A stretch of DNA of 64,000 nt from Thermoplasmatota archaeon (GTDB lineage: Archaea > Thermoplasmatota > E2 > JACPAO01 > JAHFTW01), in assembly GCA_035526765.1 (NCBI GenBank), contig DATLBS010000014.1, forward strand, positions 15,612 through 79,611, given 5' to 3'. Every line of letters begins with the position of its first letter. Within the stretch, counting starts at the first letter, position 1. The notes beneath the pieces were generated by a model, which ran no database searches, was not told where the DNA came from, and saw only the letters and a list, made by a program, of their open reading frames with translations. The position numbers and the translations under genes are program-made. This document shows positions 16,094 to 50,613 of this stretch, in pieces.

Positions 16094-16095
16094 GG

Positions 16096-33959: not shown

Positions 33960-34373
33960 CTACTTGTCGACCAATTGTTCCTGCAGCGTGATGACCATCT
34001 CGGTCAGCAGGTCCTCGAAGACCGTGTTCTTGTATTCCTTGTCGGCGCCGCCCTCGGTCTGGGTGCGCGCGATGAAGAAGTGGCCGTCCTTGACAATCTC
34101 GATCTGGCACAGCGTGTCGCGGCCGGGGACCTTGACCAGGCCCTGCTTGGGGAGCATGGGGGCCGCCTCGCCGCCCTCCACCGGGACGCCAGGCTTGGGC
34201 ATCGGCTTGGCAGGCATCGCGCCCTTCGAGGGGGAGGCGGAGGGGGACGGCTTGGCGGAGGGGGCCTTGGGGGACGGCCTGGCCTGGGGGGGCGCGGGCT
34301 TGGCGGCCGGCTTCGGGGCGGCCTTGGGTGCGCTCTTCTTCGCAGGGGCGGCGGTCTTCTTCGCGGTGGCCAT
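33960..34373 (-). CDS. Hypothetical protein with Ala/Lys/Pro-rich N-terminal tail and conserved-looking C-terminal domain
   Basis: MATAKKTAAPAKKSAPKAAPKPAAKPAPP... C-terminal LCQIEIVKDGHFFIARTQ...VFEDLLTEMVITLQEQLVDK. Confidence 0.5.
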   Translation of the reverse strand: MATAKKTAAPAKKSAPKAAPKPAAKPAPPQARPSPKAPSAKPSPSASPSKGAMPAKPMPKPGVPVEGGEAAPMLPKQGLVKVPGRDTLCQIEIVKDGHFFIARTQTEGGADKEYKNTVFEDLLTEMVITLQEQLVDK

Positions 34374-34423: not shown

Positions 34424-35155
34424 CTAGGCGCGGCGGGGACGCATGGGGCCCGGGCGCTTGTCCTTGTTGCGGGGCGCCGACTGGCCCTTGGGTGCGCCGC
34501 GGCGGCGGACCTTCGCCTTGTGCCCCGGCTTCGAGCCCTTGGGCGCGAGGTCGGCAAAGACGCGGCGGACGTTGCGGGCCAGCAGGAAGCCGCGGTGGAG
34601 GGTGCGGTTCTGGTCGGACTTGAGGGTCTTCACCACCAGGTTGATGCCCTGCACCTCCCGCACGTAGCCGACGTGGATCTCCTCCTCGGGCTCGGCCTCT
34701 TCCTGGAAGCTTCGGGTGAGGTCGCCCTCGTTGACGGTGTAGCGGAGGCGGACCGTGTCGAACAGGACGGCGTACACCATCTTGATGTCCCGGCCGGGCA
34801 GGCTCTTCGGGCGGCTGCCATCGCGTTTCTCGACGGCTGTGATGCGTACGCGGTGCCCCTCGACCTCGGTCTCGGCGTCCACCTGCACGGGGTCGTCCAG
34901 CGGGACCTCGATCTGCACGGTGCGGGCGGCGGCCCCCTCGCTGAGGATCACGGGAACCGTCACCATGCGCTGCTTGCGGGGAGCGGCCACGGTCTGCTTG
35001 GTGTGGCATTCCAGGCACTCGACGGTCCATCCAGACTCGGCGGCGCGCAGGACGGCATGGTCCTCGACGCGGCCGCACGTGGGGCACTCGAGGAAGACGG
35101 GCTCCTCGCCCTCCTCGATGTCCTCCGAGCCATCGTCCCAGCCGGTCTCGCCCAT
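34424..35155 (-). CDS. Zn-ribbon protein with acidic N-terminus and basic C-terminal tail
   Basis: CPTCG..(17)..CLEC. Downstream of the GYTLY gene and radA on the same strand. Confidence 0.5.
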   Translation of the reverse strand: MGETGWDDGSEDIEEGEEPVFLECPTCGRVEDHAVLRAAESGWTVECLECHTKQTVAAPRKQRMVTVPVILSEGAAARTVQIEVPLDDPVQVDAETEVEGHRVRITAVEKRDGSRPKSLPGRDIKMVYAVLFDTVRLRYTVNEGDLTRSFQEEAEPEEEIHVGYVREVQGINLVVKTLKSDQNRTLHRGFLLARNVRRVFADLAPKGSKPGHKAKVRRRGAPKGQSAPRNKDKRPGPMRPRRA

Positions 35156-35258
35156 GTGTCGTTCCACGCCCGCCCTGTGAAAAAGGCTTGTGCGCGACCC
35201 TCCAGACGAAGGTCGATGACGTTGCGTCGTGCCATTTGCGGCCGCCATGGCGACCTGG

Positions 35259-35444
35259 CTACAGTTTCTTCAGGTAAGGCAGGCCCGTGCGCTTGTTCTC
35301 GGCGAGCGCGTAGCCGGCGGGCATCTCGACGGGGATGCCGCTCTGGGGACGCCGCTGGCTGAAGAAGTAGATGACCTGCTTGTGGCCGCCCTTGAGCGCC
35401 ACCTCACGGGCGTGCAGGGTGTACCCGTTGTGCGTGAAGGCCAT
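35259..35444 (-). CDS. Stand-alone GYTLY-YFF-RTGLPYL module protein (roughly 61 aa)
   Basis: MAFTHNGYTLHAREVALKGGHKQVIYFFSQRRPQSGIPVEMPAGYALAENKRTGLPYLKKL. Confidence 0.5.
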   Translation of the reverse strand: MAFTHNGYTLHAREVALKGGHKQVIYFFSQRRPQSGIPVEMPAGYALAENKRTGLPYLKKL

Positions 35445-35579: not shown

Positions 35580-36629
35580 CTAGACCGCGTCTCGGATGCC
35601 GTCTTCCGTCACATTGACCACGGCCTCGCCCTCGGGCAGGTGCGGGGAGTCGACGAGACGGCAGATGCGCTTCCCGCCCTTCGACTTGCGGAGGTAGATG
35701 CGGAACGTGCTGGTGTGGCCCACGATGTGGCCGCCGATGGGGCGGGTGGGGTCGCCGAAGAAGGCATCCGGCTTGGCGGAGACCTGGTTCGTGACGATGA
35801 CGGCCGCGTTGTTGATGCCGCCCAGCCGCTGCAGGTCGTGCATGTGCCGGTTGAGCTTCTGCTGGCGGTCGGCCAGGGTGCCACGGCCCACGAACTCGGC
35901 GCGGAAGTGCGCGGTCAGGGAGTCGACCACGATGAGCTTGATGGGGAAGTCGCGGCAGATCTCCTGGGCGCGCTCGGCCAGCAGCATCTGGTGGTTGGAG
36001 TTGAAGGCGCGCGCGACATGGATCTTCTTCAGGGCTTCCTGGGGGTCCATGCCCATGGCGTTGGCCATCTGGGTGATGCGCTCGGGGCGGAACGTGTTCT
36101 CGGTGTCGATGTAGAGCGCGTGCCCGTTCAGGCCGCCTTCCGCCTCGGGGCGCTGCACGTTGACGGCCAGCTGCATGGCGAACTGGGTCTTGCAGGAGCC
36201 GAACTCGCCGTAGAACTCGGTGATGGACTGGGTCTCGATGCCGCCGCCCATCAGTTCGTCGAAGGCCTTGCTGCCGGTGCCGATCTTGTTGACGGTCTTG
36301 CGGCGCTCGGCCACTTCCAGGCCTGTCTCGAAGCCACCGACGTCGGCCAGCTTGCGGGCCGCGTTGATGATCTTCTGCGCCACGCCTTCGCCGATGTCGC
36401 ACTTCTCGGCGATGTCGCCAGGGGACGCGACGGCGATGGCCATGAGGTCCTCGTAGCCGGCCTCCTTCAGCTTGTCCGCCGTGGCAGGGCCGACGCCGGG
36501 GAGGTCCTCCACCGTCATGCGGATGTGGCCTTCCTTCTTCGGGTCCGCTCGCGCGGCGCTCAGCTCGTTGTCGAAGGTTGCGTCGTAGTCCTCTTCCATG
36601 GCAACCGGGGTTCCGTTCTTCTTGGCCAT
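35580..36629 (-). CDS. radA: DNA repair and recombination protein RadA
   Basis: N-terminal HhH ([23 protein letters not shown]). Walker [10 protein letters not shown], Walker [16 protein letters not shown]. Full RecA fold. Confidence 0.9.
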
Positions 36630-36766
36630 TCGTGGCACCAAGCCCACAAGGCCTGGCCCGCTAGTTAGGCAGGAGGGGCCGGACAGATGAAACTACTCGT
36701 CCGAGGGCTGGCTGGCGCGCGCTGGAGCTGGCCGCCAAGCCCTACCGCCGGCTTTCCTGCACGCGG

Positions 36767-39700
36767 CTACCGCTGGGACTCGTGCTCGCGGATGATCGCG
36801 TCGATGGCCTTGGGGTCGTAGCCGCGCGGCCTGGGAAGCGCCAACGACACGGGCCTGGCAGGGGCCTTCGCCTTGGCCGCCTTCGCCTTGGCGGGACGCG
36901 CCTTGGGGGGCGCATGCCCGGGCTTTCGCGCCTGCGCGGTCGCGGCCGGGGCTTCCCATGGCTCCGCGTCCGATTCCCCGGCCGCAACGCTGGTGTCCCG
37001 GGTTGCGGTCCCGAAGGCGTCCTGCGCGTCGGCGGCCCGCCCTGCCGGCTCCGAGGCCGGAGCGGACGCAGTCGCCTCACGTGCCTCGCGCGCCAACCGC
37101 TTCTCTTCCGCCAGGCGCATCTTCTCCGCCTGCTTCAGCTCGGCGGCGTGCCGCTTCGCAGCCTCCCGCTCCGCGGCCACCCTCTGCTTCTCGGCGGCGG
37201 CGCGTTCCCTCTCTTCGCGGGCACGGACCTGCGCGGCGGCCTTCTCCTCGGCGGCGCGCTGCTTTCCGGCCAACCGCTCCGCCAGAAGCCGCTCCTTCTC
37301 CGCCTGCCGGGCTGCCTTGGCGTCCCGCACGGGCGTCACGGCCTCCTGGAACTCGTGGATGGGGGCCTCGGCGGCCGCGGTCGCGGCAGGGGCGTCGTCC
37401 TCGCCGGCCGGCGCTGCGACCTCGCGGGCCGCCTTCTCCTGCTCGCGCCGCCGGCGCTCGTCCTCCTTGGCCTGCAGGGCCTGGGCCTTCGCCTGGGCAC
37501 GCGCCTCGATCTGGCGGGCCTTCTCGGCCTCCCGCTCGGCGGCCCCTCGCGCCTTCTCCTGCGCGGCGCGTTCCCGGGCCGCTTGGGCCTCCTGGCGCGC
37601 CCGCTCCTTGGCCTGCGCGACGCGCATCTTCTCGGTGGCCTTCTCCTCGGCCTCTCGGGCCCTGGCCGCCTCCTTCTCGGCGGCGGCGCGCTCCTTCTCC
37701 GCCTGCCGCTCGGCGGCCAAGCGCGCCTTCTCGGCCTCGGCCTGCTGCTGCGCACGGGCCTTCTCCTTCTCGGCCTTCAGCTTGGCAGCGGCTTCCGCCT
37801 TCTCCTCCCGTTCCCGCTGCTTGGCGATGCGCGCCTCCTCGCGCAGCCGCGCCTTCTCCTGCTTGGGATCGACCGGCCTGGGTTCGCGCTTCAGCAGCTT
37901 CCCCAATGAGAACCCGCCTTCCTTCGCGGGTCCCGCATCGGCCGTGGTCTCCTCCTTCTTGCCGCGCCTGCCTTTTGGGGCCTCGGCCAACTCAAGTGCA
38001 GGCTCCTCGGCCTGCCGTTTGGCGGCGAGTCTTGCCTCGCGGGCGGCGGCCTTCTCCTCCTCCTTGCGCTCGGCCGCGGCTTGCTTCTCCTCGGCGGCGC
38101 GTTGCTTGGCGACTTCCTTCGCACGGGCGGCCGCTTCCTTCTCGGCAGCCTTGCGGGCCTTCGCGTCCCCTTGCGGTGCCGACCCTTCGGTTGCGTCGGA
38201 GGTGCGCTTGAAACGGGAAAGGAACGACCCTGTGCGTTCCTCGGTGGCTGGCCCGGGGACCTCTTCGGCCTGTTTGCCTGCCCTGCCTTTCTTCGCGGGC
38301 AAGGACTCGATGGGTTCCGCCTCGCGGGGCTCCTCCTTGCGCTTGAGCCGGGACAAGAACGAGCCCTTGGGTTCCTCGTGGGCTGGTTCTACCGCCGGCG
38401 TGGGTTCGGCCTGTTTGCCTGCCGTGCCTTTCTTGGAGGGGGCTTCCTCGATGGCCGGCTCGGCGGTTGCCTCCTTGGGCTTCAGGCGTGACAGGAAGGA
38501 CCCCTTGGGCTCCCCTGGAGCGGGGTCCTGTTCGGCCGGGGGCTCCCGGGCTGCTGCCTTGCCCTTCTTCGCAGGCTTCTCCGGCGTGGCGGGCGCTTCC
38601 TCGGTCGCTTCTGCACCTACCTTGGCAGGCTTGCCGGCCTTCTTGGCGGCACGCTCGTCCTCGATGAGCTTCTGCTTCTCAACCTTCCGCAGCGCCGCTT
38701 CCTCGCGGGCTTTGCGCTGCGACTCCTTGCGGGCCTTGCGCTCCTCCTCCTTCTCGCGGCGCTGCTCCTCCCGCAGGGTGCGGCGGTCGGTGCCGGAGCC
38801 CAGGTCGACCTCGGGGGCAGCCTCGGTTGCGATGACCTCCTCCACGATGCGGAAGCCGGCGGACGTGGTGTACGCGCGCCCGGGCTGGTGGCCGAAGGCA
38901 TAGAGCCGCTCGGCGTCGGACTTCTCGTCCTCGGGCAGCTTCACGAAGGGGCTGCGGCCGTCGGCCAGGCGGGGGGCCTGGTGGCCCTTGCGCTCGTCCT
39001 CGGGCAGTTTGGCGAAGGCGCTGGACCCATCGGGCAGGCGGGGCTTCTCCCGCTCCAGGTGGTCCTCCGGCAGCTTGGCGAAGAGGCTGCTGCCATCGAT
39101 GAGGCGCGGCGGCGCCTTGGAGATCTCCTTCTTGGCCGGCTTGGAGGTGGCCTCCGCGAAGCCCTCCTTGCGGGCGACGATGGACTGCTCCCAGATGCCG
39201 CCCTCGCCGGTGGCCTGCGGGATCTTCTGCGCCACGGCCTCCGACCAGATGCCCTTCGGCTGGCTGCCCTCGCGCGCGGCGTCGCGGGCGCGGCGCTCCT
39301 CCTCTTTCTTGAGCCGGGCATCTTCCTTGGCCTTCTCCTTCTCTTCTTCGGAGCGGCGCTTGGCCTCCGCGGCCTCGGCCTTCGCCCTGGCCTTCAGGTC
39401 CGCCTTCGTCGGCTCGGCCGAGGCAGCAACGGCGGGAGCGTCCTTGGCGTCCTTCGCCGCCTGTTTCTCGGCCAGCATGCGTTCCTTCTCCGCCTTCCTG
39501 GCGGCCTTGGCATCCAGGGGGGCGTCGACCGCGGCAGGGGCGGGCGCAGGGGGTTCCTTGCCGGACTTCGCAGCCTTCTTGGCTTCCTTGGCGGCCAGTC
39601 TCTCGGCCTTGGCGCGTTCCTTCTCCGCCACCTTGGCCTGCTTCGCAGCCAGCTTCGCGGCCTTGGCTTGTTCCTTCTGGGCGAGCTTCTCGGCCTTGGC

Positions 39701-41461
39701 GGCCGCCTTGGGGTCCGGCACGTCGGCCGCCGCTGGCGTGGGCGGAGTGGGGGGCGCGAGGGGCGCGGCTGGCGCTTCCGTCTGCAGCTTCCCCTTGGTC
39801 CTGCGCAGTTCCTGCTGGACCTTCACGTCGGCGGTGCGGACGCTTCCACCCAGGATCGCCTGCGCGTCCGCGACCCACGCGGCCGCCGTCGCGTCGTCCT
39901 GGCCTGCCGCCTTGGCCACCAGGGCCAAGTCCGCCGCGGCCAGGGTCTGGAGCGTGAGGATCCCCTTCTTGCCAAGCTTCTTGGCCTGAGCCGGCCCGAT
40001 CCCCTTCACGTCGGTGACCGGGCGTTCGTGGGGCGTCGCGCTGCCGCTGGCCCCTTGGGACATGGTCGCGGCGGGTGCGGCAGCCGTTTGCGTGGCTTGC
40101 CTGATTTCCAGGGCCGACAGTTTGGCGCGGGCCATCGCCTCCTTCTCCTCCTGCCTGCGTTGCTGGGCGGCCTCTTTCTCGGCCTGCTTGGCGCGGCGTG
40201 CCTCCTCTTTTGCGGCGGCGGCCGCCTGGGCCTCCTGCTCGGCAAGCTGGCGTTTGGCCTCCTTCTCGGCCTTCGCGTTCGCCACGGCGATGCGCTTCTC
40301 TTCCTCGCGGGCCGCCTTGGCGGCGGCCTTCTCGGCAAGGGCGGCCTCTTTCTCACGCTGCTTCTGCGCCTTGGCCTCTGCCTTCAGGTCGGGCAGGGGG
40401 GCAGCGGGGGGTGCCTCAAGGACCGGTTGAGGTTCAGCGGTGGGCGGTGCGGCCTTGGCGGCGGCCTTCGCTGCGCGCTCGGCCTCCTTGGCCTGCTGCG
40501 CTGCCTGCTTCGCACGTGCGGCCTCCTCCGCGGCGGCCGCCTTGGCCAGCCGCTTCTGTTCCCTGGCATCCAGCGCGGGTGCGGCCGCGGCGGCGCCGGC
40601 TGGGGCCGGGGCATCGTCGCGGGCCAGGCCCAGCAACGACTTGCATTTTGGACAGGTGGCCTGCGTCGCGTCGGCGGCGACTGGGAACACGGTCCGGCAG
40701 TTGGCGCACTCGACGGTCTCGCCGCCGGGCGCCGCCTTGGCCGCCTTCGCGAGGCGCTTCTGCTCGGCCGCGCGCTCCCTGGCCGCCTTCTTCTCGGCGG
40801 CCGCGGCCTTGGCAGCGGCCTCCTTCCCGCGCCGCGCCGCCTCCTTCGCGGCGGCTGCCTGCGCCTTTGCGTCGTCCTTGGCCGGGGCGGCCGGGGCGCC
40901 AGCCTCGGACGGGGCGGGGGAGGCCGCGGCCTTGGCGGCGTCGGCGCCGCGCCTCGCTTCCTCCTTCTGGCGCTCGCGGGCCTCGGCGGCGGCCAGCTTG
41001 GCGGCGGCCTTCTCGGCCTTGGCGGCTTCCTTCGCCCGAGCCTTCCCTTCCGCAGCCTGCTTCTTGGCCTCCAGCCGGGCCCTGGCGGCTGCGGCCTTGT
41101 CGTCGGGATCTGCCTGGCTGGCTTCGGCCGCTGCCCTGGGCTTGCGGCGGAACAGTCCCGCCTTCTCGCGGGGGGGCTCGTGCAGCTCGACCTTCGGCGC
41201 GGCGGGCTCCTTGCGGCGGAAGCGGTGCAGGAACCCGCGCTCGGCCTCCTTCACGGCTTCCTTGGCAAGCTGCTTGTCGTCGAGGTCGGCCTTCTCGACG
41301 AACTGGATCTGCTCCTCCTCGTCCTGGTCGACCGCGGGCTCGGGCAGTCCCTGGACCTTCCGCAGGGCCCGGATCCCCACGTCGTCCGCCTTGGGGCGTG
41401 GGGTCCTGCCAGGCTTGCGGGAGGTCTTGGCGGGCTTGGACGGCTGGGTCTTGCGGGCCAC
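36767..41461 (-). CDS. Giant (roughly 1565 aa) Ala/Lys/Glu/Arg-rich (single-alpha-helix-like ER/K) protein with Zn ribbon, HhH motif and internal tandem peptide repeats
   Basis: Putative GTG start at 41461, with a GGAG 10 nt upstream and a CTTTATCTAT TATA-like box 45 nt upstream. Zn ribbon CANCRTVFPV...CPKCKS. HhH VTDVKGIGPAQAKKLGKKGILTLQTLAAADL. 3x DGSS.FAKLPED and 3x KGSFLSRLK.K repeats. Long AKEAAKAEKAA..-type low-complexity helices. Overlapping plus-strand ORFs are antisense shadows. Confidence 0.7.
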   Translation of the reverse strand: MARKTQPSKPAKTSRKPGRTPRPKADDVGIRALRKVQGLPEPAVDQDEEEQIQFVEKADLDDKQLAKEAVKEAERGFLHRFRRKEPAAPKVELHEPPREKAGLFRRKPRAAAEASQADPDDKAAAARARLEAKKQAAEGKARAKEAAKAEKAAAKLAAAEARERQKEEARRGADAAKAAASPAPSEAGAPAAPAKDDAKAQAAAAKEAARRGKEAAAKAAAAEKKAARERAAEQKRLAKAAKAAPGGETVECANCRTVFPVAADATQATCPKCKSLLGLARDDAPAPAGAAAAAPALDAREQKRLAKAAAAEEAARAKQAAQQAKEAERAAKAAAKAAPPTAEPQPVLEAPPAAPLPDLKAEAKAQKQREKEAALAEKAAAKAAREEEKRIAVANAKAEKEAKRQLAEQEAQAAAAAKEEARRAKQAEKEAAQQRRQEEKEAMARAKLSALEIRQATQTAAAPAATMSQGASGSATPHERPVTDVKGIGPAQAKKLGKKGILTLQTLAAADLALVAKAAGQDDATAAAWVADAQAILGGSVRTADVKVQQELRRTKGKLQTEAPAAPLAPPTPPTPAAADVPDPKAAAKAEKLAQKEQAKAAKLAAKQAKVAEKERAKAERLAAKEAKKAAKSGKEPPAPAPAAVDAPLDAKAARKAEKERMLAEKQAAKDAKDAPAVAASAEPTKADLKARAKAEAAEAKRRSEEEKEKAKEDARLKKEEERRARDAAREGSQPKGIWSEAVAQKIPQATGEGGIWEQSIVARKEGFAEATSKPAKKEISKAPPRLIDGSSLFAKLPEDHLEREKPRLPDGSSAFAKLPEDERKGHQAPRLADGRSPFVKLPEDEKSDAERLYAFGHQPGRAYTTSAGFRIVEEVIATEAAPEVDLGSGTDRRTLREEQRREKEEERKARKESQRKAREEAALRKVEKQKLIEDERAAKKAGKPAKVGAEATEEAPATPEKPAKKGKAAAREPPAEQDPAPGEPKGSFLSRLKPKEATAEPAIEEAPSKKGTAGKQAEPTPAVEPAHEEPKGSFLSRLKRKEEPREAEPIESLPAKKGRAGKQAEEVPGPATEERTGSFLSRFKRTSDATEGSAPQGDAKARKAAEKEAAARAKEVAKQRAAEEKQAAAERKEEEKAAAREARLAAKRQAEEPALELAEAPKGRRGKKEETTADAGPAKEGGFSLGKLLKREPRPVDPKQEKARLREEARIAKQREREEKAEAAAKLKAEKEKARAQQQAEAEKARLAAERQAEKERAAAEKEAARAREAEEKATEKMRVAQAKERARQEAQAARERAAQEKARGAAEREAEKARQIEARAQAKAQALQAKEDERRRREQEKAAREVAAPAGEDDAPAATAAAEAPIHEFQEAVTPVRDAKAARQAEKERLLAERLAGKQRAAEEKAAAQVRAREERERAAAEKQRVAAEREAAKRHAAELKQAEKMRLAEEKRLAREAREATASAPASEPAGRAADAQDAFGTATRDTSVAAGESDAEPWEAPAATAQARKPGHAPPKARPAKAKAAKAKAPARPVSLALPRPRGYDPKAIDAIIREHESQR

Positions 41462-41505
41462 GTTGATTCGTCCACTCCAGGAGGCACGCGGCACACCCGA
41501 GGGAC

Positions 41506-41515
41506 ATAGATAAAG
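41506..41515 (-). promoter_or_regulatory. TATA-like box (CTTTATCTAT on minus strand) for the giant gene, in a divergent intergenic region shared with polB
   Basis: It is the only AT-rich octamer in a GC-rich spacer, and its position relative to the GTG start is appropriate. Confidence 0.3.
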
Positions 41516-41732
41516 GATATCTGGAAGCCTGGAAGCCGGGACGGTCGGATGGCCGCACTGCGCAGGCGCGCCCGTTTGGGGTAGCCACGGAGCGCACGGA
41601 AAACACGGAGGGCTTCGCTGTCGTGCGCAGGCCACGCTCCGTGGACTCCGTTCCCTCCGTGGCTTGCCGTGACCATGGAACATCCTGGCCGTTGGCCCAA
41701 ACCCCTAAGCCCGTCGGCCAACTCGCCGCGGC

Positions 41733-44700
41733 GTGTCGGTCCTGCTCAGCCTCTCGAACAGCCACCTGTTCTGGCAGGGGCGGGAGCCGGAGCCCATCGA
41801 GAAGCACCATCGCCCCTTCTTCCTCGCGTTCCCGCAAGACCCCCATGAGCCCATCGGCAAGGCGCATGCCAGGCTGGTGGCGTTGGTGGGTGCCGCGCAG
41901 GGGAGGTCGCCGGACGAGGACCCCTTGGCCAAGGCGCTGGAGGTGCACGAGCCCATCCAGTACAGGTCGTTCTGGAACCATGGCCAGCACCGCATGGCGA
42001 TCCCCGTGGTGGCGCGGCGGCCCTTCTGGATCCCGGACATCTCGGAGGCCCTGTTCTTCACGCATGGCTTCTACACCTGCGAGCACGACATCCCGTACAC
42101 GGAGCGCGCCAACGCCGACCTCGCGGCGGAGAAGGGCTGGTGGCTGCTGGACACGCGCGGGCAGCCCAACAAGCTCAACGTGATGACGTACGACATCGAG
42201 ACGACGCAGTACGGCAAGGGCCCGGCGCCTCCCTTGCCCACGCGTCCTGGCGCGGCGGCCCCCTCCATCCCCATCGACATCATCGGCTATTCCCACTTCG
42301 ACCTCGAGTACTCCGCCGCCAAGGACCTCGACACGGAGCAGTTCGACTTCCAGTTCCGCCACCTCCCCAACGACTGGGCCGAGCGCGAGGTCGTGCAGCT
42401 CACCTCCCGCAACCTGGACGAGGAGCTGGACCACCTGCAGCAGTTCACGGAGCATGCCGTGAAGCAGGACATCATCGCGGGCCACAACATCCTGGGCTTC
42501 GACAACAAGCAGATCCACGACCGTCTGGTGGAGTTGCTGCAGAAGGACCAGCGGCGGCAGACCCTGTCACCGAAGATGCGCGAATGGTTCCAGCGCTTCA
42601 CGAACGTCCACAGCCGTCCCGACCGCAGTTTCCATTTCGGCACGAGCCAGGACATCGCGACGTGGCACCCCATCACGCTGGACACGTTCCACGCGGCGCG
42701 CAAGTTCTTCTTCTTCCACGACGACTTCACCCTGAAGGGCCTTGCCCCTTGGCTGGGCATCAACGTCCCCGATCGCCTTTACCTCGAATCGCACGAGATG
42801 GGGCTCGACGCCAAGACGCTGCTGTACAACAAGCACGACGTCCAGGAGCAGATGGGCATCACGCAGATGCTCATCGCGCAGGCGCTCCCCCTCTGCTTCA
42901 CCGTCAACCTCCCGCTCGACGACCTGCTGACCGGGGGCAACACGAAGATGTGGGACCACATGGCCTTCATCCGCGCCCGCCGCCAGAGGCGCTTCATGCC
43001 GGCGACCTCCCGCGCCCAGGCCATCGCGCGCGCCGTGCAGCGCGTGCTGCCGCGCACGCCGTTCCCCACGCGCGAGCAGGTGAGCGAGGCGGTGCGCCAG
43101 CTGCCGCCCGAGGAGCGGGCCACGAGCGCGAACAAGGAGATCGTGCGCGTCGCGAAGCAGGGACCCGAGATGCCGTTCTGGTGCGAGCACCCGGGCGTCA
43201 TCGTGAAGGCGGACCCCACGACGTCGGGTGACCCCGATGACCCGAACGGCTACGCCATCCCCGGAGGCATGACGCTCAAGCCCGACTCGGAGCTCAAGTC
43301 CCACTTCGTGCCGTGGTACCACGTGGTCGCGGCGGACGTGGGCGCCATGTACCCGACGATCCTCAAGGCCCGCAACCTCACGGCCGACACGGTGCGGCCG
43401 GCGCGGGCGGGGGAGACGCCGGACGACTGGATCTGGCTGTTCGAGCTGGACGAGGTGTTCGCCAGCAGTGGGAGATACGTCGTCAAGAAGGCGGATGCGG
43501 CGGACAAGTTCACGAAGGGCAAGGGATGGCTCATCGGCGTCAAGCACTCGGGCGAGCCAGGCATGGTCAACCTCGCGATGACGGGCATCCTGAGCACCAT
43601 CCAGAAAGTGAAGGACGAACGTGCCCGGGCCAAGAAGGAAGGTCGCCCGAAGGACGCCATCCGCATCCTCGACATGACGTACCAGAGCCTGAAAGCGGCC
43701 CGCAACGCCGGCACGCACGGCATCCTCGTCGCCGTCAACGTCTCCTGCCGCCAGTTCAACGTGTGGGGCGGCGCCAACATCACGACGATCGGCCAGAAGA
43801 TCCTGCACGACACCCTCACCGATTGGGAAGGCCAGGGCATCCGCGTGGTCTACGGCGACACGGACGGCATCTACATGGGCTGCAGCAAATCGGCGGGGAA
43901 CATCCCCCACTTCGCCGAGGCGCTGGGCGCCGACGTGGAGCCGCAGGCGGACAAGTGGATCACGATGCCGGACCAGGCCCTCGCGGCGGTGGCGGCGGCG
44001 AACAAGAAGTGGCGCGACGAACTGCAGTACGAGGGGTTCGAGCTGGAGGCGGAGACGCATGACGCCATGGTCTTCGTCGTGCACAAGAACTACCTCATCT
44101 TCGACGCCAACCCCAAGGGCGACGGCATCCTCCTCGAGACGAAGGGGAACAACTTCAAGGCCTCCGACAAGGCGCCCTTGACGCAGGAGGTCATGCGCAA
44201 CATCATGGCCCGGGCGCTGCGGGAGGTCAGTGCCTGGGACTCGGAGGAGAAGGCGCGCGAGGCCATGAAGACCGCCATCAAGAAGGCGACGCGCGAGGTG
44301 ATGGGGACCATCCAGGTCGCGAAGACCGAGCGGCGTGACCTCATCCTGCGCCAGTCCGTGGGCTCCATCAAGAGCTACGAGCCGAACCCCGACGGCACCC
44401 TCCGGAGCCAGGCCGTCCGCACCGCCGCGCTGGAGGACCTGCTGGGAGAGCCGATCACCTCCACGCGCAAGATGCGCTTCATCGTCTGCAAGACCCCTCT
44501 GCCCCTGTACACGAGCCCCGACCGGCAGCAGGCCAAGCAGCAGGAGCTGGCCCGCAGCGGCCACCAATTGGTCGTGAAGGAGCCGAAGAACCGCGGCCTC
44601 AAGCCCATCGAGTACATGTGGCCCGTCGAAAGGGTCGACCCCGCCGCCATCGACTGGGTGTGGTACAAGTCCATGGTGGAGGACTACGTGAAGGGGGCGT

Positions 44701-44756
44701 TCGGGTTCGATTCCCTGGAGCTCGTGGTGCAGCGGGACCTGTCGAGCTGGTTCTGA
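41733..44756 (+). CDS. polB: Family B DNA polymerase, divergent
   Basis: Exo I MTYDIETTQYG. Exo II IAGHNILGFDNKQI. Exo III LLYNKHDVQE. Pol motif A VVAADVGAMYPTIL. Motif C VYGDTDGIYMG. Motif B region atypical (LKAARNAGTHGIL). Confidence 0.8.
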   Translation: MSVLLSLSNSHLFWQGREPEPIEKHHRPFFLAFPQDPHEPIGKAHARLVALVGAAQGRSPDEDPLAKALEVHEPIQYRSFWNHGQHRMAIPVVARRPFWIPDISEALFFTHGFYTCEHDIPYTERANADLAAEKGWWLLDTRGQPNKLNVMTYDIETTQYGKGPAPPLPTRPGAAAPSIPIDIIGYSHFDLEYSAAKDLDTEQFDFQFRHLPNDWAEREVVQLTSRNLDEELDHLQQFTEHAVKQDIIAGHNILGFDNKQIHDRLVELLQKDQRRQTLSPKMREWFQRFTNVHSRPDRSFHFGTSQDIATWHPITLDTFHAARKFFFFHDDFTLKGLAPWLGINVPDRLYLESHEMGLDAKTLLYNKHDVQEQMGITQMLIAQALPLCFTVNLPLDDLLTGGNTKMWDHMAFIRARRQRRFMPATSRAQAIARAVQRVLPRTPFPTREQVSEAVRQLPPEERATSANKEIVRVAKQGPEMPFWCEHPGVIVKADPTTSGDPDDPNGYAIPGGMTLKPDSELKSHFVPWYHVVAADVGAMYPTILKARNLTADTVRPARAGETPDDWIWLFELDEVFASSGRYVVKKADAADKFTKGKGWLIGVKHSGEPGMVNLAMTGILSTIQKVKDERARAKKEGRPKDAIRILDMTYQSLKAARNAGTHGILVAVNVSCRQFNVWGGANITTIGQKILHDTLTDWEGQGIRVVYGDTDGIYMGCSKSAGNIPHFAEALGADVEPQADKWITMPDQALAAVAAANKKWRDELQYEGFELEAETHDAMVFVVHKNYLIFDANPKGDGILLETKGNNFKASDKAPLTQEVMRNIMARALREVSAWDSEEKAREAMKTAIKKATREVMGTIQVAKTERRDLILRQSVGSIKSYEPNPDGTLRSQAVRTAALEDLLGEPITSTRKMRFIVCKTPLPLYTSPDRQQAKQQELARSGHQLVVKEPKNRGLKPIEYMWPVERVDPAAIDWVWYKSMVEDYVKGAFGFDSLELVVQRDLSSWF

Positions 44757-44970: not shown

Positions 44971-45061
44971 AGACTGCGTGCCGCAACACGTTGTCGGTGA
45001 CCCAGATGGCTTTGGCGTCGCATCCCGGCAACCTCAAGTGCAAGCACCCACGCTTCCCCGC

Positions 45062-45403
45062 ATGCGCTGGTCCTGGCCCTCGTGGCTTGCCATCATCTTC
45101 GGCGCCCTGCTGGCCGTGGCTGCCTTCTGGCTCACCAACGACCAGCACGATGTCGCCTACCTCACGGGCCTCCTCATCCCGGGGGCTATCCTCATGGGTG
45201 CTGGCCTCCACGCCCTGCAGGCCAGCTACGATTCCTGGTGCGGCGACGACTGCTACGGGTACGGTGGCGGTTCGTGCGGGTGCGACCACTGCGGCGACTG
45301 CTCGGGCGGCGACTGTTGCGGCCACTGCGGCTGCAGCAACATGCGCACGGACGGGCAGGGGCACGACGGCCACGGCCACGACCACGGCGAGCACAGCCAC
45401 TGA
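45062..45403 (+). CDS. Small membrane protein with Cys/Gly-rich and His/Asp-rich (metal-binding-like) C-terminal tail
   Basis: MRWSWPSWLAIIFGALLAVAAFWL... two TM helices. CGDDCYGYGGGSCGCDHCGDCSGGDCCGHCGC....GQGHDGHGHDHGEHSH. Confidence 0.5.
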   Translation: MRWSWPSWLAIIFGALLAVAAFWLTNDQHDVAYLTGLLIPGAILMGAGLHALQASYDSWCGDDCYGYGGGSCGCDHCGDCSGGDCCGHCGCSNMRTDGQGHDGHGHDHGEHSH

Positions 45404-45680: not shown

Positions 45681-46139
45681 ATGAAGTCCGAGCCCGAGTC
45701 GTACTCCATCGACGACCTGGCGCGCGACGGCACGACCGACTGGACCGGCGTCCGGAACTTCAAGGCCCGCAACTGGATGAAGGAGATGCAGGTCGGCGAC
45801 AAGGTCCTCTTCTACCACAGCAACGCCGATCCTCCCGGCGCCGCCGGTGTGGCCGAGGTCTGCGCAGTGGCCCACGCCGACCGCACCCAGTACGATGCCA
45901 GATCGGACTACTTCGAGCCCAAGGCCACCCCGGAGAAGCCGTACTGGTACTGCCCGGACATCAGGTTCGTGGCGAAGTTCACCCGCTTCGTCCCTCTGCA
46001 GGAATTGCGCGACAGCGATGCGCTGAACGGCATGCTGCTCACGTCCGGCAAGGCGTCACGCCTTTCGGTGCAGCCGGTGGACAAGAAGCACTTCGATGCG
46101 ATCGTCAAGATGGGCAGCAAGGTTTCGCCCCCCACGTAA
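45681..46139 (+). CDS. EVE (PUA-like) domain protein
   Basis: HWLMKSEPESYSIDDL..WTGVRNFKARNWMKEMQVGDKVLFYHSN.. is the typical EVE/Thy1-like fold signature. Confidence 0.7.
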   Translation: MKSEPESYSIDDLARDGTTDWTGVRNFKARNWMKEMQVGDKVLFYHSNADPPGAAGVAEVCAVAHADRTQYDARSDYFEPKATPEKPYWYCPDIRFVAKFTRFVPLQELRDSDALNGMLLTSGKASRLSVQPVDKKHFDAIVKMGSKVSPPT

Positions 46140-46340
46140 CCACAGATGGCACAGATGCCCAAGATGCCCGCCCAGCCCCCTGAGCAGGGCTTGGTGGTGC
46201 TCCAAATGCCCTTCAGTGGATTGGTCTGGGCGGTCGCGTTCGCGCAGCGAACCCAGCGCGCGCAGCGCAAGGGGACGAAGCCGGCCGCGCGGTGAGCGCG
46301 GCCACGATGCTGCGACCGCCCCGTCCTCCGAGGGGTACGA
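46136..46340. repeat. Left copy of an approximately 200-bp direct repeat (CACAGAT module + structured W element) bounding the lower-GC island
   Basis: About 75% identical to 60127-60335 over its length. Contains the identical 28-mer GCCGGCCGCGCGGTGAGCGCGGCCACG. Confidence 0.6.
46228..46321. ncRNA. Candidate structured RNA 'W' (copy A): closing stem GGGCGGTCGC/GCGACCGCCC, hairpin GTTCGC/GCGAAC, hairpin GGCCGCGC-GGTGA-GCGCGGCC
   Basis: Two stems show compensatory changes relative to copy B (60224-60316). No match to tRNA or 5S recognised. Confidence 0.45.
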
Positions 46341-46391
46341 GGCCCGGAGGTAGAGGACCCTCTTTGGTGGTAATCTCACCTCCCCTGTTGG

Positions 46392-46907
46392 ATGCGGTTC
46401 TTCGGAGTTGATCCCATGAAACCCCAAAAACACCCCCGAACAGCAGACATCGCCCGACTTGTCGCGCGAGCGTCCGATGCGAACCGGCCCCAATTGGAAG
46501 CCCACATCGAATGGAACCGGGGCCAGAACCAAATGAGCGAGAACGGCGTGTACAGTTTTGCGCGCCCCATCGTCCACGCGGACTCGATCCTGGAAGGCAA
46601 GCCCTTCCACACGACAAAAACCCAGGACTGGCTCAAGGTGGTCTCCGTGTTCCGGACCATCTACAGCCCCCACAGCCTCCGGATCAGGGTCGTGAATCTG
46701 CGAAAACATGTGCGGTACTGCTTCGACGTGGACGACCTGGAAAAAGCCGAGGAGTTGGGCAAGAAAGAGGGCCGCGCCATGGAGAAGGCCCTTTGGGTCA
46801 AGCGCGAGAAGCCTCAGGTCGTGGGCCAAGTCATCCTGGAAACGGACGTGGATGCCATGCTGGCGGCAATCGCGGCGCGCAACAGCCTAGGGGGCAAAAC
46901 CAGATGA
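46392..46907 (+). CDS. Hypothetical protein (island cargo)
   Basis: ORF in the lower-GC region. No motifs recognised. Confidence 0.4.
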   Translation: MRFFGVDPMKPQKHPRTADIARLVARASDANRPQLEAHIEWNRGQNQMSENGVYSFARPIVHADSILEGKPFHTTKTQDWLKVVSVFRTIYSPHSLRIRVVNLRKHVRYCFDVDDLEKAEELGKKEGRAMEKALWVKREKPQVVGQVILETDVDAMLAAIAARNSLGGKTR

Positions 46908-47297
46908 TTTCTGCACGTTCTTGTTCAAATTTCCGGGTGCGTAACGATTACACAATTGCCTGTTCCAGTGTATTGCCACTGGGGACTCGTCGGAACCCAT
47001 ACGGCCGCCCCAGTCTTGTGGGCATCATTGTATGGACGGACCAAATTGAAGGTGAGCGGGTAAGAGTCAGTGCCGTCCGGGGACATCGCGCATGGACCAA
47101 AAGAAAGGCAAGCTGGGGAATCCTCCGGACAAATGGCCACTTCGCGGATTTCGACCGGGGGCGGGGGTAGACCTGGCAAGGGTTGAGCGTTGGCCGGAGA
47201 CATGCAAAACAGCATGGCGAGAAGGCAACATAGAATTCCTAGAGGGGTTCCGTTTGGCATAGAGTTCAGTTTCCTTGGGATGTTTTTTTGGAGATTG

Positions 47298-48152
47298 TCA
47301 CGGCAAATCCATGATGACTTTGAGCGTTGCAATGGTGGTCTCAGTTGTTTGGGATCCTGCTCCGTAGTCAGCCACCGCCCCTACCATCCCGCCGTGTATC
47401 GTTAGTGGCCCGATTGTTCCTACGAACGTCAGAATCTCGTAGAATGTTTCGTTGAGCCAAGCATGTCGGGTGCCGTCGCTTTGGTGCCATCGGCCGCCGG
47501 TTATGGCGTTCCCCTGCGGAGGGCTTGTCTCTCCTGCCCCAATGAAATCATACAGGACGTCATCTTGGGTTGCCACGTGGTATTGCAGAGTTTGCCCAGT
47601 CACGGCGCCTTCCACGGTCCCCAGCCGAGCATGGAAGCCTGCTTTTTGGAACAAGGAGACCATTGATTGGTTTGCAGCAATCAATTCCAGGAGATAGAAG
47701 TCGCCTCGATTCGGGTCATGAGATTGCACGTCGGCCGGAACTTTTGCGGGCGCCGTCAAGGTTGCGTACCTAATGTCGTGAAGCACTTCCAGGCTGTCGA
47801 CCACCCCGGTGTCACAAAGGAAAATGCTGAAGTGGGCGAGTTCTAGATTCCCAGCCACGGGATCTGGCCGGTATCCATCTGGAAGCTGGGCCTTCATCTT
47901 GTCCGCGTCCGCGGCCAGGCTAGTGTAGTAGGCTTGGCAGCCGTTCATTTCCAGCTTCTTCGGGGATGCAGCAAGAACAAGGTTGCAAGCCGTGGAATTC
48001 TGCTTGCAAGAGTCAGGCGTCGATGTGGTGTCAAGCGTGGCTGTCGTCGAGGCGGTGCCGGAAGAGGTTGTGATTGGATTGTTGGTTCGTGAGCCGCAAC
48101 CTGCTAAGGAAAGCATGAGGACCAGGATGCAAGGGATCCAAGCAGTGCGCAT
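47298..48152 (-). CDS. Lipoprotein, hypothetical (island cargo)
   Basis: MRTAWIPCILVLMLSLAGCGS lipobox. Thr/Ser-rich linker. Abuts the upstream regulator gene. Confidence 0.55.
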   Translation of the reverse strand: MRTAWIPCILVLMLSLAGCGSRTNNPITTSSGTASTTATLDTTSTPDSCKQNSTACNLVLAASPKKLEMNGCQAYYTSLAADADKMKAQLPDGYRPDPVAGNLELAHFSIFLCDTGVVDSLEVLHDIRYATLTAPAKVPADVQSHDPNRGDFYLLELIAANQSMVSLFQKAGFHARLGTVEGAVTGQTLQYHVATQDDVLYDFIGAGETSPPQGNAITGGRWHQSDGTRHAWLNETFYEILTFVGTIGPLTIHGGMVGAVADYGAGSQTTETTIATLKVIMDLP

Positions 48153-48153
48153 G

Positions 48154-49839
48154 TTATGCATCTCCAGGATGTGTGGTCCTACTTTGCGTTTCCGGGGTTC
48201 GAATCCAGGGTAGCGCAATGGAAGCCGGATTGCTCGGGCCAGCCAATCGGGGGTGCAGCGCCCAGAGCGTGGTGCGGCCGGTGCGCGAACGCAGCAAGAC
48301 TCCATCGGCTTCCATCCGGCGCATGTGGTACGAGAAAAGGCTAGTTTTCGGCACGGGACTCCCGTGCAAGCCCAATGCCTTGCGAATCGAATCCGCGTCC
48401 ATCGGCGTGGCGGCTTGGCCTAGGATTTCGATGATGCTCTTGCGGATGGGGTGGCGCGAATCGGCCAGGGCATTCTGCACAATCCTATCAGATGCCCCCA
48501 GGGGGTAAGCGGGCTCGAAGTGTTGGCGGTGGCCGTGCGAATACACTTTGATGAGATCCGCGTCCGCAAGGATCTGGGCATGGAAATTGAGTGAAGAACG
48601 ACGCAAGCCCACGGTCTGCATTAGCTGCGGGGCGCCAATTCCGGGAACTTCCCGGATTAGTTTCAGCAGCTGGACGCGCGTGGGGTGTTCCAGGGGTTGG
48701 GCACGAGAATTTCTTAGCAGGAAAAACCGGATTCCCTTCGCAACGCTCGACGAGGAGGCAACAAGCCATGCAAGTAGACTGAAGCCGGCAAGGGCTCCTA
48801 GGGCCGGCAGCCATTCCCGAGTGCCAAAGACTGCCACCCCATCAATTCCAAGGTAGCTCGCTTCGCCATCCAATTTCCACTGGCTGCTGGGCGCCCCATA
48901 CCTGCCTTGGAACTTGAAGTCGCCAATGGTTTGAACAAGACCCAATTCTTTGTTCACGAATCGGGCGTCGACGCTCGTGCTCCCAACGTCAGCAAAGGCG
49001 ATGTCGCCGTCGTAATGACCCTCAAGGGATTCAAGAAGAGGATTCCAAAGACCGCCGCGGTCTTGTTGAAGATGAATCGCCGTTGAGGGGGCCGTGATGA
49101 GCACGGCAATACGGTCGTAGTATCCCGTCGTGGAATAGCCCAAGGGGTCGCTGAACTCTGTGCCCTGGTGGGGATAGATTCCGGTGTGGATAACGCGATC
49201 CCCACCCAGGGCAACGGATGACCCATACGCAAGAATCGCGAATTCCCCAGTGTATGACCGGGTATCGGCTTGTTCGTGATTCCAGCGGCCCGCTTGCTCG
49301 TAAGGGGCATAGTGGCGAGGCGCTTCATTGGTGCCTTGCAGTGTAAATTCATAGCGGTGATCTGGAATCTCAATCGACTGCTTCCCGGTCTCATCAAGCT
49401 GCAATCGGATGGCTTGATGCTCAGTCGGGGGGAGGAAACGAACGGCCGAAATGATTTGCTCGTTCCGGATCTCAACGGTACCAGTAAAAGCAAAGTCTTC
49501 GTTCTTCTGTTCCGGAGGCTCAGGGGCGTACGCAGCCCCTTGGCCCACGGGGCTCTCTCTGCTTGTTCTGGCCTTGGCCAGAGGATCCGAAAGAATTTGG
49601 ATGTGGGCGCCCGTAACGGAAAAATTGGCTGTGATGTTTCCTGAGTGCCAGAAGGATTCGAAGGCGATGCCGGCCAAGTTCGCGAGGCCCTGGTACCGGC
49701 CGTTCAAAGCAAGCGTGCCTGAGGAAACGATGTCGCCTGAAACATGGGTCGTATCAGGAGGCTTGGCGATGGCGGCCGGCAAGAAAGCCAGGATGCAGCA
49801 CGCCGCCGCAGCGACAATCTGAACCCTGCTTCCGGACAT
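48154..49839 (-). CDS. Membrane-tethered one-component regulator: signal peptide, extracellular domain, single TM, cytoplasmic tandem winged-helix domains
   Basis: Signal peptide MSGSRVQIVAAAACCILAFLPAAIA. TM helix LPALGALAGFSLLAWLVASS. C-terminal LIREVPGIGAPQLMQTVGLRRSSLNFHAQILADADLI plus a second wHTH. The cytoplasmic part is homologous to 28522-29070. Confidence 0.65.
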   Translation of the reverse strand: MSGSRVQIVAAAACCILAFLPAAIAKPPDTTHVSGDIVSSGTLALNGRYQGLANLAGIAFESFWHSGNITANFSVTGAHIQILSDPLAKARTSRESPVGQGAAYAPEPPEQKNEDFAFTGTVEIRNEQIISAVRFLPPTEHQAIRLQLDETGKQSIEIPDHRYEFTLQGTNEAPRHYAPYEQAGRWNHEQADTRSYTGEFAILAYGSSVALGGDRVIHTGIYPHQGTEFSDPLGYSTTGYYDRIAVLITAPSTAIHLQQDRGGLWNPLLESLEGHYDGDIAFADVGSTSVDARFVNKELGLVQTIGDFKFQGRYGAPSSQWKLDGEASYLGIDGVAVFGTREWLPALGALAGFSLLAWLVASSSSVAKGIRFFLLRNSRAQPLEHPTRVQLLKLIREVPGIGAPQLMQTVGLRRSSLNFHAQILADADLIKVYSHGHRQHFEPAYPLGASDRIVQNALADSRHPIRKSIIEILGQAATPMDADSIRKALGLHGSPVPKTSLFSYHMRRMEADGVLLRSRTGRTTLWALHPRLAGPSNPASIALPWIRTPETQSRTTHPGDA

Positions 49840-50001
49840 CGCGGCAACCACTCGCGTGTCCCTATAAATCTCTTGGCGCAGCGTTTGCTGGATTGTTCCA
49901 ATCAACGTTACACAGTTGATGATATACCCTGACTCCATCGCCGCGTTTCATATGGTTACGTCCGCGCCCTTCGCTTTGGTTCCCCTTCCACAGGAGGAAC
50001 G

Positions 50002-50613
50002 ATGAACGTCTGGTGGATGCTCTGCCTGGCGGGTGCCACCTGCGGGGCGGTGTTCGTCGCCTCGCATCTTCTTGGTCCCTATTTTCGGTGGTGGCGAGAG
50101 CAACCCCGCGAAACCCCCTTGGAACGCCGCCAACGCCGGCTCGCGAACGCCGTCGAGAACTCCTTCGGAGCAGCCGCGGACGGGCACCCCTGGGATGCCC
50201 GTTGGTGGGGTGCCAAGGCATGCCGCTTGGACCCGCGCGCACCATCGGCCATGCATTCGCTTGGACACGCCTGGATGCTCTGCAACCGACCCGTCCTGGC
50301 GTTGAAGCACCTTGAGCGCGCCGTCGTCTTGTTGGACGAGGGTGTGTGCGCGGATGACCCAATGGAGCTCACGGCGGAGATTGCCGTCGATGCCAGCCGA
50401 TGCTGCGCCATGCTCCGTCTCGATTGCACCGACCCTGTGGAGAAAGAACAGTGGGGGGAGGGCGTGCTGCGCTGGGCCCGCGTTGCCATCGAATCGAAAC
50501 CTGACGTGGCCCAGGAACTCCGTTCCAACCACTACTTGCGGGATCTAGAATCCGCGATCCACGTCCTGTTGACCAGCCTTGACTCCAAGGCGCAACCCCT
50601 GGGGATCCGCTAA
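50002..50613 (+). CDS. N-terminally anchored helical-repeat (TPR-like) protein
   Basis: MNVWWMLCLAGATCGAVFVASHLL TM anchor. Helical repeats follow. Confidence 0.4.
   Translation: MNVWWMLCLAGATCGAVFVASHLLGPYFRWWREQPRETPLERRQRRLANAVENSFGAAADGHPWDARWWGAKACRLDPRAPSAMHSLGHAWMLCNRPVLALKHLERAVVLLDEGVCADDPMELTAEIAVDASRCCAMLRLDCTDPVEKEQWGEGVLRWARVAIESKPDVAQELRSNHYLRDLESAIHVLLTSLDSKAQPLGIR

Follow-up and report, generated by a model that had tools for sequence, protein, structure and literature searches.

Domains of the HHH_5/(HhH)2 type bind duplex DNA without sequence specificity, TolA domain II serves as an extended helical spacer, and the binding of H1-like tails to DNA is electrostatic. The archaeal factors that load or control RadA are, apart from the RadA paralogues, poorly known to our knowledge, and we know of no BRCA2- or Rad52-like mediator described in Euryarchaeota-type lineages. 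BRC repeats, about 35 amino acids (aa) long, consist of an FxxA module followed by an LFDE-type module (PMC2800230, PMC9162458), and very long weak helices can act through their length, as in perilipin 4 (PMC5889406). A 64,000-nucleotide (nt) stretch of DNA from a Thermoplasmatota archaeon (contig DATLBS010000014.1; hereafter the window) was analysed for a giant modular gene that lies directly upstream of radA. Its 1564-aa product is interpreted, with a probability of roughly 0.4, as a lineage-restricted, multivalent, DNA-bound scaffold that would be coupled to RadA.

The giant protein resembles BRCA2 in its very large size, tandem short repeats, DNA-binding modules, conserved C-terminal peptide and genetic link to a Rad51-family recombinase, but differs in lacking FxxA and LFDE modules, OB folds and any sequence homology, and in a repeat of 22-23 aa. 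The residue three after the Phe of its PRLxDGxSxFxKLPED repeat was Leu, Ile or Val, never Ala, and identity with BRC repeats was rejected because the FxxA and LFDE modules are absent. Bacterial TolA domain II and the linker-histone-like tails of AlgP and the mycobacterial HU C-terminus have a similar Ala/Lys/Glu-rich low-complexity composition; no homology to them was present, and the giant protein adds folded DNA-binding modules, motifs and the linkage to radA. A literature search met DUF4332, a domain found in relatives of the protein, only in an unrelated context and found no archaeal BRCA2-like mediator.

The gene and the elements flanking it were located at the following positions.

41507 to 41516, minus strand: TATA-like box CCTTTATCTA, recognised by sequence, about 45 nt upstream of the GTG
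41471 to 41478, minus strand: Shine-Dalgarno-like GGAGTGGA, 8 nt upstream of the GTG
36767 to 41461, minus strand: giant modular protein gene, 1564 aa, GTG start, stop included
36685 to 36697, minus strand: promoter-like element AGTAGTTTCATCT, within the 137-nt spacer upstream of radA
35580 to 36629, minus strand: radA, ATG at 36629 (MAKKNG...), NCBIfam RadA E=3.6e-157, Pfam Rad51 E=3.6e-88

The giant open reading frame (ORF), 36767 to 41461, is a real coding gene. The open frame on the minus strand spans 36767 to 41683, in DNA with a local guanine plus cytosine (GC) content of roughly 70%. GC by codon position was 0.76/0.55/0.86, a coding-type pattern that begins around the GTG at 41461; upstream of this GTG the values were 0.63/0.69/0.68, with no frame signal. 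Because the coding-type pattern starts at this GTG, with CCTTTATCTA and GGAGTGGA upstream, the product was assigned 1564 aa, and the roughly 1565-aa protein upstream of radA that the original prediction had read from the letters, with a TATA box and Shine-Dalgarno sequence of its own, was recovered. Ahead of the homologous genes, a box like CCTTTATCAA is present again in 8-9 other loci, among them L001, L005, L006, L007, L009, L011, L017 and L021. AT skew of the plus strand over the gene was -0.37 to -0.49, which is consistent with Ala/Lys/Glu codons on the minus strand. The protein contains 26.7% A, 13.6% E, 12.0% K, 9.5% R and 7.0% P and has a net charge of +65; no transmembrane segment was found in its 1564 aa (maximum 19-residue Kyte-Doolittle mean 1.47). 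Opposite the gene, the plus strand holds two Ala/Ser/Leu/Arg-rich antisense ORFs, at 36873 to 38903 and 38888 to 41509 (676 and 873 aa), and in L017 an antisense 257-aa 'gene' (5636 to 6409, minus strand) is annotated in the public record between two split genes. These ORFs were rejected as genes and regarded as artefacts of GC-rich low-complexity DNA.

A full-length homology search returned at least 3 relatives of 1178-1581 aa, aligned over 10-20% of the query at 39-48% identity; one of them is named 'DUF4332 domain-containing protein [Thermoplasmatota archaeon]' in the database. Scoring 1.84 billion representative proteins with a core profile (Trp motifs, repeats and FGH module, listed below) gave 4 proteins below 1e-30 and one 93-aa fragment. 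A scan of one genome per species gave 7 loci, all in metagenome-assembled genomes (MAGs) of Thermoplasmata/Thermoplasmatota or in mislabelled MAGs, and members L013, L017/L018, L021 and L020 were added by tracing the 61-aa mini-protein encoded after radA. A metagenome scan with the core patterns returned no relative. In total there are about a dozen relatives (among them proteins P0001-P0004 and loci L006-L013, L017 and L021), all in Thermoplasmatota genomes with a locus GC of 58-72%. Identity between members in the core was 43-56% (41-56% by tblastn). The core gave zero matches in phage and plasmid collections and in PHROGs, and a mobile-element origin of the gene was rejected on these results.

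Across the members the modules are conserved as a set of motifs, which in the window protein occupy the following positions.

41207 to 41380, minus strand: N-terminal conserved module ALRKV...LAKEAVKEAERGFLHRFRRK, aa 28-85, with tblastn matches to homologue N-termini
40628 to 40720, minus strand: Zn ribbon CANCRTVFPV...CPKCKSLLGL, aa 248-278 (C252xxC, C270xxC)
39860 to 40021, minus strand: (HhH)2-type domain, aa 481-534; the first half of DUF4332 in the family is homologous to it
39167 to 39256, minus strand: two Trp motifs, GIWSEAVAQ and GIWEQSIVA, aa 736-765, with W6 and W24 invariant in a 9-sequence alignment
38924 to 39109, minus strand: three tandem 22-23-aa repeats PRLxDGxSxFxKLPED, aa 785-846
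38807 to 38911, minus strand: RLYAFGHxPGRxYTTxxGFxIVEE (FGH) module, aa 851-885, with F-G-H, G, Y-T-T, G-F and E invariant
38192 to 38509, minus strand: three repeats of a 46-aa unit with KGSFLSRLK(R/P)K, aa 985-1090
37061 to 37864, minus strand: C-terminal charged Ala/Glu/Lys/Arg helix block, aa 1200-1467, with stretches of 106, 44 and 68 aa and 6-9% LIVMFYW
36770 to 36826, minus strand: C-terminal signature RGYDPKAIDAIIREHESQR ([YF]Dxxx[IK]IDxLL), a pattern match across members

Conserved in the members are ALRKV...AERGFLHRF, the Zn ribbon or ribbons, the Trp motifs, the PRLPDGxSPFxKLPED repeats and RLYAFGHxPGRxYTTxxGFxIxEE; a basic RRFLxRxxRTP peptide followed by DUF4332 is likewise conserved. 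The AERGF[LM]xRF motif is present in one copy in each full-length member. In the repeats, R-L-x-D-G-x-S-x-F was invariant in the 9-sequence alignment; most members have 3-4 copies, and 2 were found by regular expression in L013 and L017b. The window protein carries DGSSxFAKLPED three times (aa 789-846). Its KGSFLSRLKxK repeats start at aa 987, 1033 and 1078, with related copies at aa 76, 102 and 1182, and Tandem Repeats Finder gave a DNA period of 138 nt over them (1.9 copies, score 313), so that both sets of threefold repeats named beforehand were found. Basic-hydrophobic motifs such as GLLSRFGRK and PRFGFGRKPK, of the type hydrophobic-hydrophobic-x-Arg-hydrophobic-x-Arg-Lys, vary in number, up to about a dozen per member. 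The FGH module was confined to this family in the profile search of 1.84 billion proteins. An AlphaFold2 (AF2) model of the core, built on a shallow 5-sequence alignment, had a predicted local distance difference test score (pLDDT) of 65 and a predicted template modelling score (pTM) of 0.26, with short helices and no compact fold. Because the model lacks a compact fold, the core motif region is probably an array of linear motifs.

The Zn ribbon of the original prediction was present with the spacing C252xxC-14 aa-C270xxC, and every member has 1 or 2 ribbons; Pfam zinc-ribbon models gave sub-threshold matches only to the 1564-aa protein. Over aa 481-534 the HhH domain scored 35.7 bits with Pfam HHH_5 (PF14520; E=1.2e-8), above the curated cut-off of 27, and its closest sequences of solved structure (PDB) were the N-domain of Pyrococcus Rad51/RadA and the HhH extension of haloarchaeal L32e. 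By blastp it was 31-57% identical to the DUF4332 domains of the family, the alignment covering the first HhH half only, and no Pfam match to the full ~120-aa DUF4332 (PF14229) was obtained in the window protein at E<=1. The proposed relation to the RadA N-domain and DUF4332 therefore stood for the HhH half, and for DUF4332 only in part. The idea that a frameshift upstream of 41461 conceals an N-terminal DUF4332 was rejected, as tblastn found none there. Full DUF4332 matches to Pfam were obtained for P0001-P0003 and for a window ORF at 13933 to 15270. In most members the domain is N-terminal; in the window protein it is internal and halved, in L017b and L021b it follows the core, and L017 has two copies. 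The family thus shares with HHH_5 and DUF4332 proteins an HHH_5 match above cut-off and, in relatives, the full domain, but the domain makes up less than 5% of the giant protein, is found at varying places (at the N-terminus, internally or after the core) and is in part duplicated; the window protein has only the first half, and the rest of the protein lies outside this domain family.

The C-terminal signature was present at the C-terminus of 12 of 12 pattern-matched members; L009 has a divergent variant (LESKVDAILRSHE). The signature always stands just before radA wherever the two genes adjoin. L012 and L013 additionally carry a CxALTxxGxxCRN...C..H knuckle with a weak likeness to TRM13-CCCH. 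The spacers between modules could not be aligned and range in composition from Arg/Glu-rich (P0003) to Lys/Ala-rich (P0001), and net charge ranges from +11 to +142. Nine members have 552-692 aa between the FGH module and the C-terminal signature. Relatives differ in the order of their modules and in their spacers' sequence, and keep the motifs and the C-terminal spacer length. All recognisable modules are of nucleic-acid-binding type. The HhH domain, Zn ribbon and charged helices are of known kinds. The architecture and the coupling to radA are undescribed, as are the core motifs and the C-terminal signature. That the protein had not been described, as first proposed, agrees with its sole source name, 'DUF4332 domain-containing protein', and with a DUF4332 literature that is unrelated.

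The giant gene or its last piece was found directly upstream of radA, on the same strand, in 11 of the 13 lineages with context (the window, L001, L003, L005, L009, L011, L012, L013, L017, L021 and L020). Homologues consistently unlinked to radA had been named beforehand as the observation that would speak against the prediction; such consistent unlinking was not seen, radA being directly downstream in these 11 lineages. The radA start at ATG 36629 is backed by the alignment of upstream spacers. Genes upstream of the giant gene vary between loci, and rearranged genes follow radA in L009 and L011, which retain the giant gene-radA pair. Three consecutive genes with 4-nt overlaps together encode the split protein of L017/L018 and L021, the last of them encoding charged helices and the C-terminal signature. 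The junctions of this last gene with radA were as follows.

L017: stop of the last gene overlaps the start of a radA copy (radA1), ATGA
L020: stop overlaps the radA start, TGATG; partial contig in which only the C-terminal-module gene is visible
L021: last gene ends 45 nt before radA, with a CTTCATCC element 38 nt before the radA ATG

No promoter-like element was found before the overlapped radA genes of L017 and L020. The stop/start overlap and the lack of such an element indicate co-transcription of the C-terminal module with a RadA in these two lineages, probably together with translational coupling. The overlap with radA is the strongest evidence for a functional link. In L017 (7525 to 9966; also L018) radA is present as two full-length copies in tandem, with 80% and 83% identity to the window RadA. 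It is the first copy that overlaps the C-terminal-module gene before it; the product of the second, 459 aa long, has two additional HhH domains at its N-terminus.

The charged helices were analysed by composition and periodicity. Twelve Pro/Gly-free stretches of 28-106 aa make up 666 of the 1564 residues (43%). LIVMFYW content was 3-10% in 11 of the 12 and 21% in the short stretch at aa 43-75; in the best heptad register those 11 had an a/d occupancy of no more than 0.21, aa 43-75 reached 0.33 and a tropomyosin control 0.59. Comparisons with the control sequences (tropomyosin, myosin-10) are rough. Hydrophobic heptads are thus absent, in line with the heptad-free charged helices first described, and a classical coiled coil was rejected on a/d occupancy. 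Ala content of the stretches was 13-50%, and all are net basic except aa 43-75 (net -7). Ala autocorrelation peaked at spacings 4 and 11, from which an Ala-based hendecad coiled coil is conceivable. Opposite-charge pairs at i to i+4 were not enriched (z=+0.6; myosin-10 control +4.7), pairs at i+3 had z=+3.6 (control +4.0), and a crude ER/K score exceeded 0.2 only in aa 695-724 and 901-930 (6% of residues).

Lys/Arg autocorrelation was strong at 4, 7 and 11 in each member tested, with z up to +8.5. Fourier analysis of Lys/Arg in 7 members gave a peak at 98-100 degrees (3.6-3.67 residues per turn; z=5-16 against shuffles), a harmonic at 162-163 degrees that was the top peak in 5 of the 7, and no signal at the heptad angle. 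From this period, Lys/Arg are predicted to form a continuous basic stripe along one helix face. The helices are Ala-rich, net basic and mostly not of the classical ER/K type: the proposed stable single alpha-helices held in so far as helix breakers and heptads are lacking, but the i to i+4 pairing was not found and the Lys/Arg stripe stands in its place. Like the ER/K helices of myosin VI/X and caldesmon they are long, charged, Pro/Gly-free and without hydrophobic heptads, and a spacer role agrees with conserved length and variable sequence; they differ in their Ala content and in a 4/7/11 pattern that groups like charges on one face. With group-3 LEA proteins, apolipoproteins and perilipin 4 they share the 11-residue period (3.67 per turn) and long Ala/Lys/Glu-rich helices, but their non-polar face consists of Ala only, the periodic residues are basic and no LEA_4 match was found in Pfam. 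With a mean hydrophobicity of -0.06 to -0.40 and a moment of 0.10-0.22 the long helices are hydrophilic, and giant lipid-binding amphipathic helices of the LEA/perilipin type were rejected on hydrophobicity despite the 11-residue period.

A scaffold or tether function, as the original prediction had suggested, is what we infer from the nucleic-acid-binding modules, the basic stripes, the repeated motifs, the length-kept spacers and the coupling of the C-terminal module to radA. The HhH and Zn modules together with the basic helix stripes would hold the protein on duplex DNA, the helices would serve as semi-rigid spacers giving reach, and the repeated motifs would recruit partners in several copies, with RadA itself, the 61-aa beta protein and the CPxCG zinc-finger protein as candidates. 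In this way the giant protein would act as a mediator or tether in recombination, concentrating RadA on DNA or setting its position there. Several observations weigh against this reading. The motifs of the giant protein show no likeness to any known RadA/Rad51-binding motif, FxxA being absent. In L006 and L007, two close relatives, radA does not adjoin the gene and a convergent translation-factor-like gene is found there. In 7 loci including the window, giant gene and radA are separated by a spacer of 126-280 nt with a conserved promoter-like element. Lastly, part of the adjacency to radA may be inherited gene order, since the genomes all come from one part of Thermoplasmatota and the wider block is syntenic.

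This element, cAGTAnTTTCATCC, was conserved in 7 of 7 aligned loci including the window, about 55-60 nt before the radA ATG; the loci other than the window with the element at this place are L001, L003, L005, L009, L011, L012 and L013; GGTGCC stands immediately before the radA ATG in the aligned loci. In this lineage cAGTAnTTTCATCC is probably the radA promoter and GGTGCC its ribosome-binding site. With such an element of its own before radA, a simple giant gene-radA operon is unsupported in the window, which has the 137-nt spacer and the element, where L017 and L020 have the overlap and no element. The syntenic block runs PF01877 - giant gene - radA - mini-protein - CPxCG, and in the window a divergent family-B DNA polymerase (PolB) replaces PF01877. 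The PF01877 ('RNA_binding', formerly DUF54) gene is often directly upstream of the giant gene (L001, L002, L006, L017, L021).

Several of these observations bear equally on a different role, that of a general nucleoid-associated, DNA-coating or DNA-protecting protein, comparable to linker-histone tails, Dsup or LEA-type helices, for which adjacency to radA would reflect inherited order or shared regulation. Such a role, the main rival, is possible, if doubtful. It would account for the range of net charge and the Ala/Lys-rich helices, for an 11-residue Lys/Arg periodicity as in LEA-type repeats, for the separate promoter-like element before radA in 7 loci, for L006 and L007, and for the synteny of the whole gene block within one lineage. 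It is harder to reconcile with the start/stop overlap in L017 and L020 and the 45-nt gap in L021, with a radA adjacency that outlasts rearrangements on both sides, with the lack of a LEA_4 match, or with the many conserved short motifs and the C-terminal peptide, which point to specific partners. Were those partners bound as in BRCA2, the protein would be an independently evolved archaeal functional analogue: the PRLPDGxSPFxKLPED repeats and/or YDxxxIDALL would bind RadA directly, the HhH/Zn modules and basic helices would bind DNA, RadA filaments would be loaded, capped or tethered, and the 61-aa beta protein would be a third partner. This specific form of RadA coupling is considered rather unlikely.

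The basic-hydrophobic motifs (GSFLSRLKRK, GFLHRFRRK) could instead act as weak multivalent membrane-targeting amphipathic peptides, with the HhH/Zn modules on DNA, in the manner of a Noc-like DNA-membrane tether. They are similar to the membrane-targeting peptides of MinD and Noc, have a hydrophobic moment of 0.15-0.44 and a net charge of +1 to +5, and reach about a dozen copies in L009, L011 and P0002. Their hydrophobicity, however, was 0.0-0.2 against 0.27-0.53 in MinD and Noc peptides (moment 0.41-0.46), PRFGFGRKPK, the variant in L009, is rich in Gly and Pro and probably not helical, and basic-aromatic motifs bind nucleic acids equally well. The long helices, with the values given above, are not lipid-binding, the conserved cluster holds no membrane protein and the giant protein no transmembrane segment; a membrane tether is accordingly improbable. 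Least credible of all is a fast-evolving low-complexity ORF without specific function, or a frame mis-called in GC-rich DNA. The antisense ORFs of 873 and 676 aa and the large share of low-complexity spacers would fit it, but the codon-position GC pattern is found in this frame only, the AT skew matches minus-strand Ala/Lys/Glu codons, the TATA-like box and the C-terminal spacer length are conserved, and motifs stay invariant across members that are 43-56% identical in the core. This conservation already contradicts it.

Downstream of radA, a cluster of genes follows on the same strand.

35259 to 35444, minus strand: 61-aa mini-protein MAFTHNGYTLH...NKRTGLPYLKKL, following radA (83-aa ORF, 61 aa from the conserved ATG)
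34424 to 35248, minus strand: CPxCG-related zinc-finger protein, Pfam PF19769 E=2.6e-33, conserved after the mini-protein
33960 to 34373, minus strand: 137-aa protein, its N-terminal tail rich in Ala/Lys/Pro and its C-terminal domain conserved

The co-directional arrangement of the giant gene with radA, a mini-protein and a Zn-ribbon protein was thus as first described, the last being the CPxCG zinc-finger protein. The motif name given to the mini-protein had to be corrected, as the copy next to radA reads GYTLH and GYTLY occurs in two paralogous domains of the window. The mini-protein was found in 68 clusters, all Thermoplasmatota where named, with an invariant NKRTGLPYLKK tail, and a metagenome scan gave more than 423 loci. 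A mini-protein gene within about 70 nt after radA recurs in contigs of 29-40% GC (loci L027-L100), whose RadA is 63-70% identical to that of the window; no giant protein was found upstream of radA in these loci. As many lineages with the radA-mini-protein pair are without it, the giant protein is a lineage-specific addition, made within the 58-72% GC lineage to a pair that is older and wider. Placing the gene in a recombination gene cluster accordingly holds for the adjacency to radA, but the pair exists without the giant protein, which thus does not belong to a universal cluster of this kind, and the mini-protein is the far more widely conserved neighbour of radA. The AF2 model of the mini-protein had a pLDDT of 96 and four beta strands, and no relative was found among solved structures (PDB). 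The 137-aa protein had tblastn matches beside the CPxCG gene in L001, L003, L005, L011, L012 and L022-L025, and no family match in Pfam or NCBIfam.

Two further window ORFs carry the GYTLY domain. The first, 13933 to 15270 on the minus strand (445 aa), has a Cys-rich N-terminal part (CACCADGCCEGGDCCDHAGC...); its GYTLY domain is a homologue of the mini-protein next to radA, and it also contains a full DUF4332 (Pfam E=1.4e-18), with 35-42% identity to those of the giant family. The second, 15356 to 16300 on the minus strand (314 aa), has, besides its GYTLY domain, a membrane anchor and a CSALTDEGHQCRNSA...YCSSH knuckle, which has a weak TRM13-CCCH likeness and is the same knuckle as within the giant proteins of L012 and L013. 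Its orthologue in L009 (6071 to 6763) is 58% identical and lies 1.3 kb upstream of the giant gene. Since the GYTLY domain is fused to DUF4332 in one ORF and to the knuckle in the other, the mini-protein domain, DUF4332 and the knuckle appear to belong to one functional neighbourhood.

In the rest of the window, the PolB divergent from the giant gene (41733 to 44756, plus strand, 1007 aa) gave weak Pfam/NCBIfam matches (E about 1e-6); YDIET, MYPT and YGDTDG are visible, and the sequence is very divergent. It is followed on the plus strand by a 141-aa ORF (44978 to 45403) with a hydrophobic stretch and then a Cys/His-rich tail (CDHCGDCSGGDCCGHCGC...HDGHGHDHGEHSH) that is possibly metal-binding and similar in its Cys-rich style to the N-terminal part of the 445-aa ORF. 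The region 46001 to 58000 has a GC of 0.58-0.63, against 0.66-0.73 elsewhere, with few ORFs showing the coding pattern of third-position GC, and may be a foreign or non-coding island. The sole RNA gene of the window found with Rfam and ARAGORN was a tRNA-Arg (TCG) at 10928 to 11002 on the minus strand.

The giant scaffold gene before radA is a concrete and testable candidate for a RadA-controlling factor in Thermoplasmatota, and the natural three-gene split in some lineages marks its functional pieces. As read from its sequence, the protein would be a prokaryotic case of a eukaryote-style architecture, in which DNA-binding beads and multivalent short motifs are joined by charged spacers of conserved length. 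The 61-aa protein, confidently folded without a structural relative and encoded after radA across very different archaeal genomes, may reach wider.

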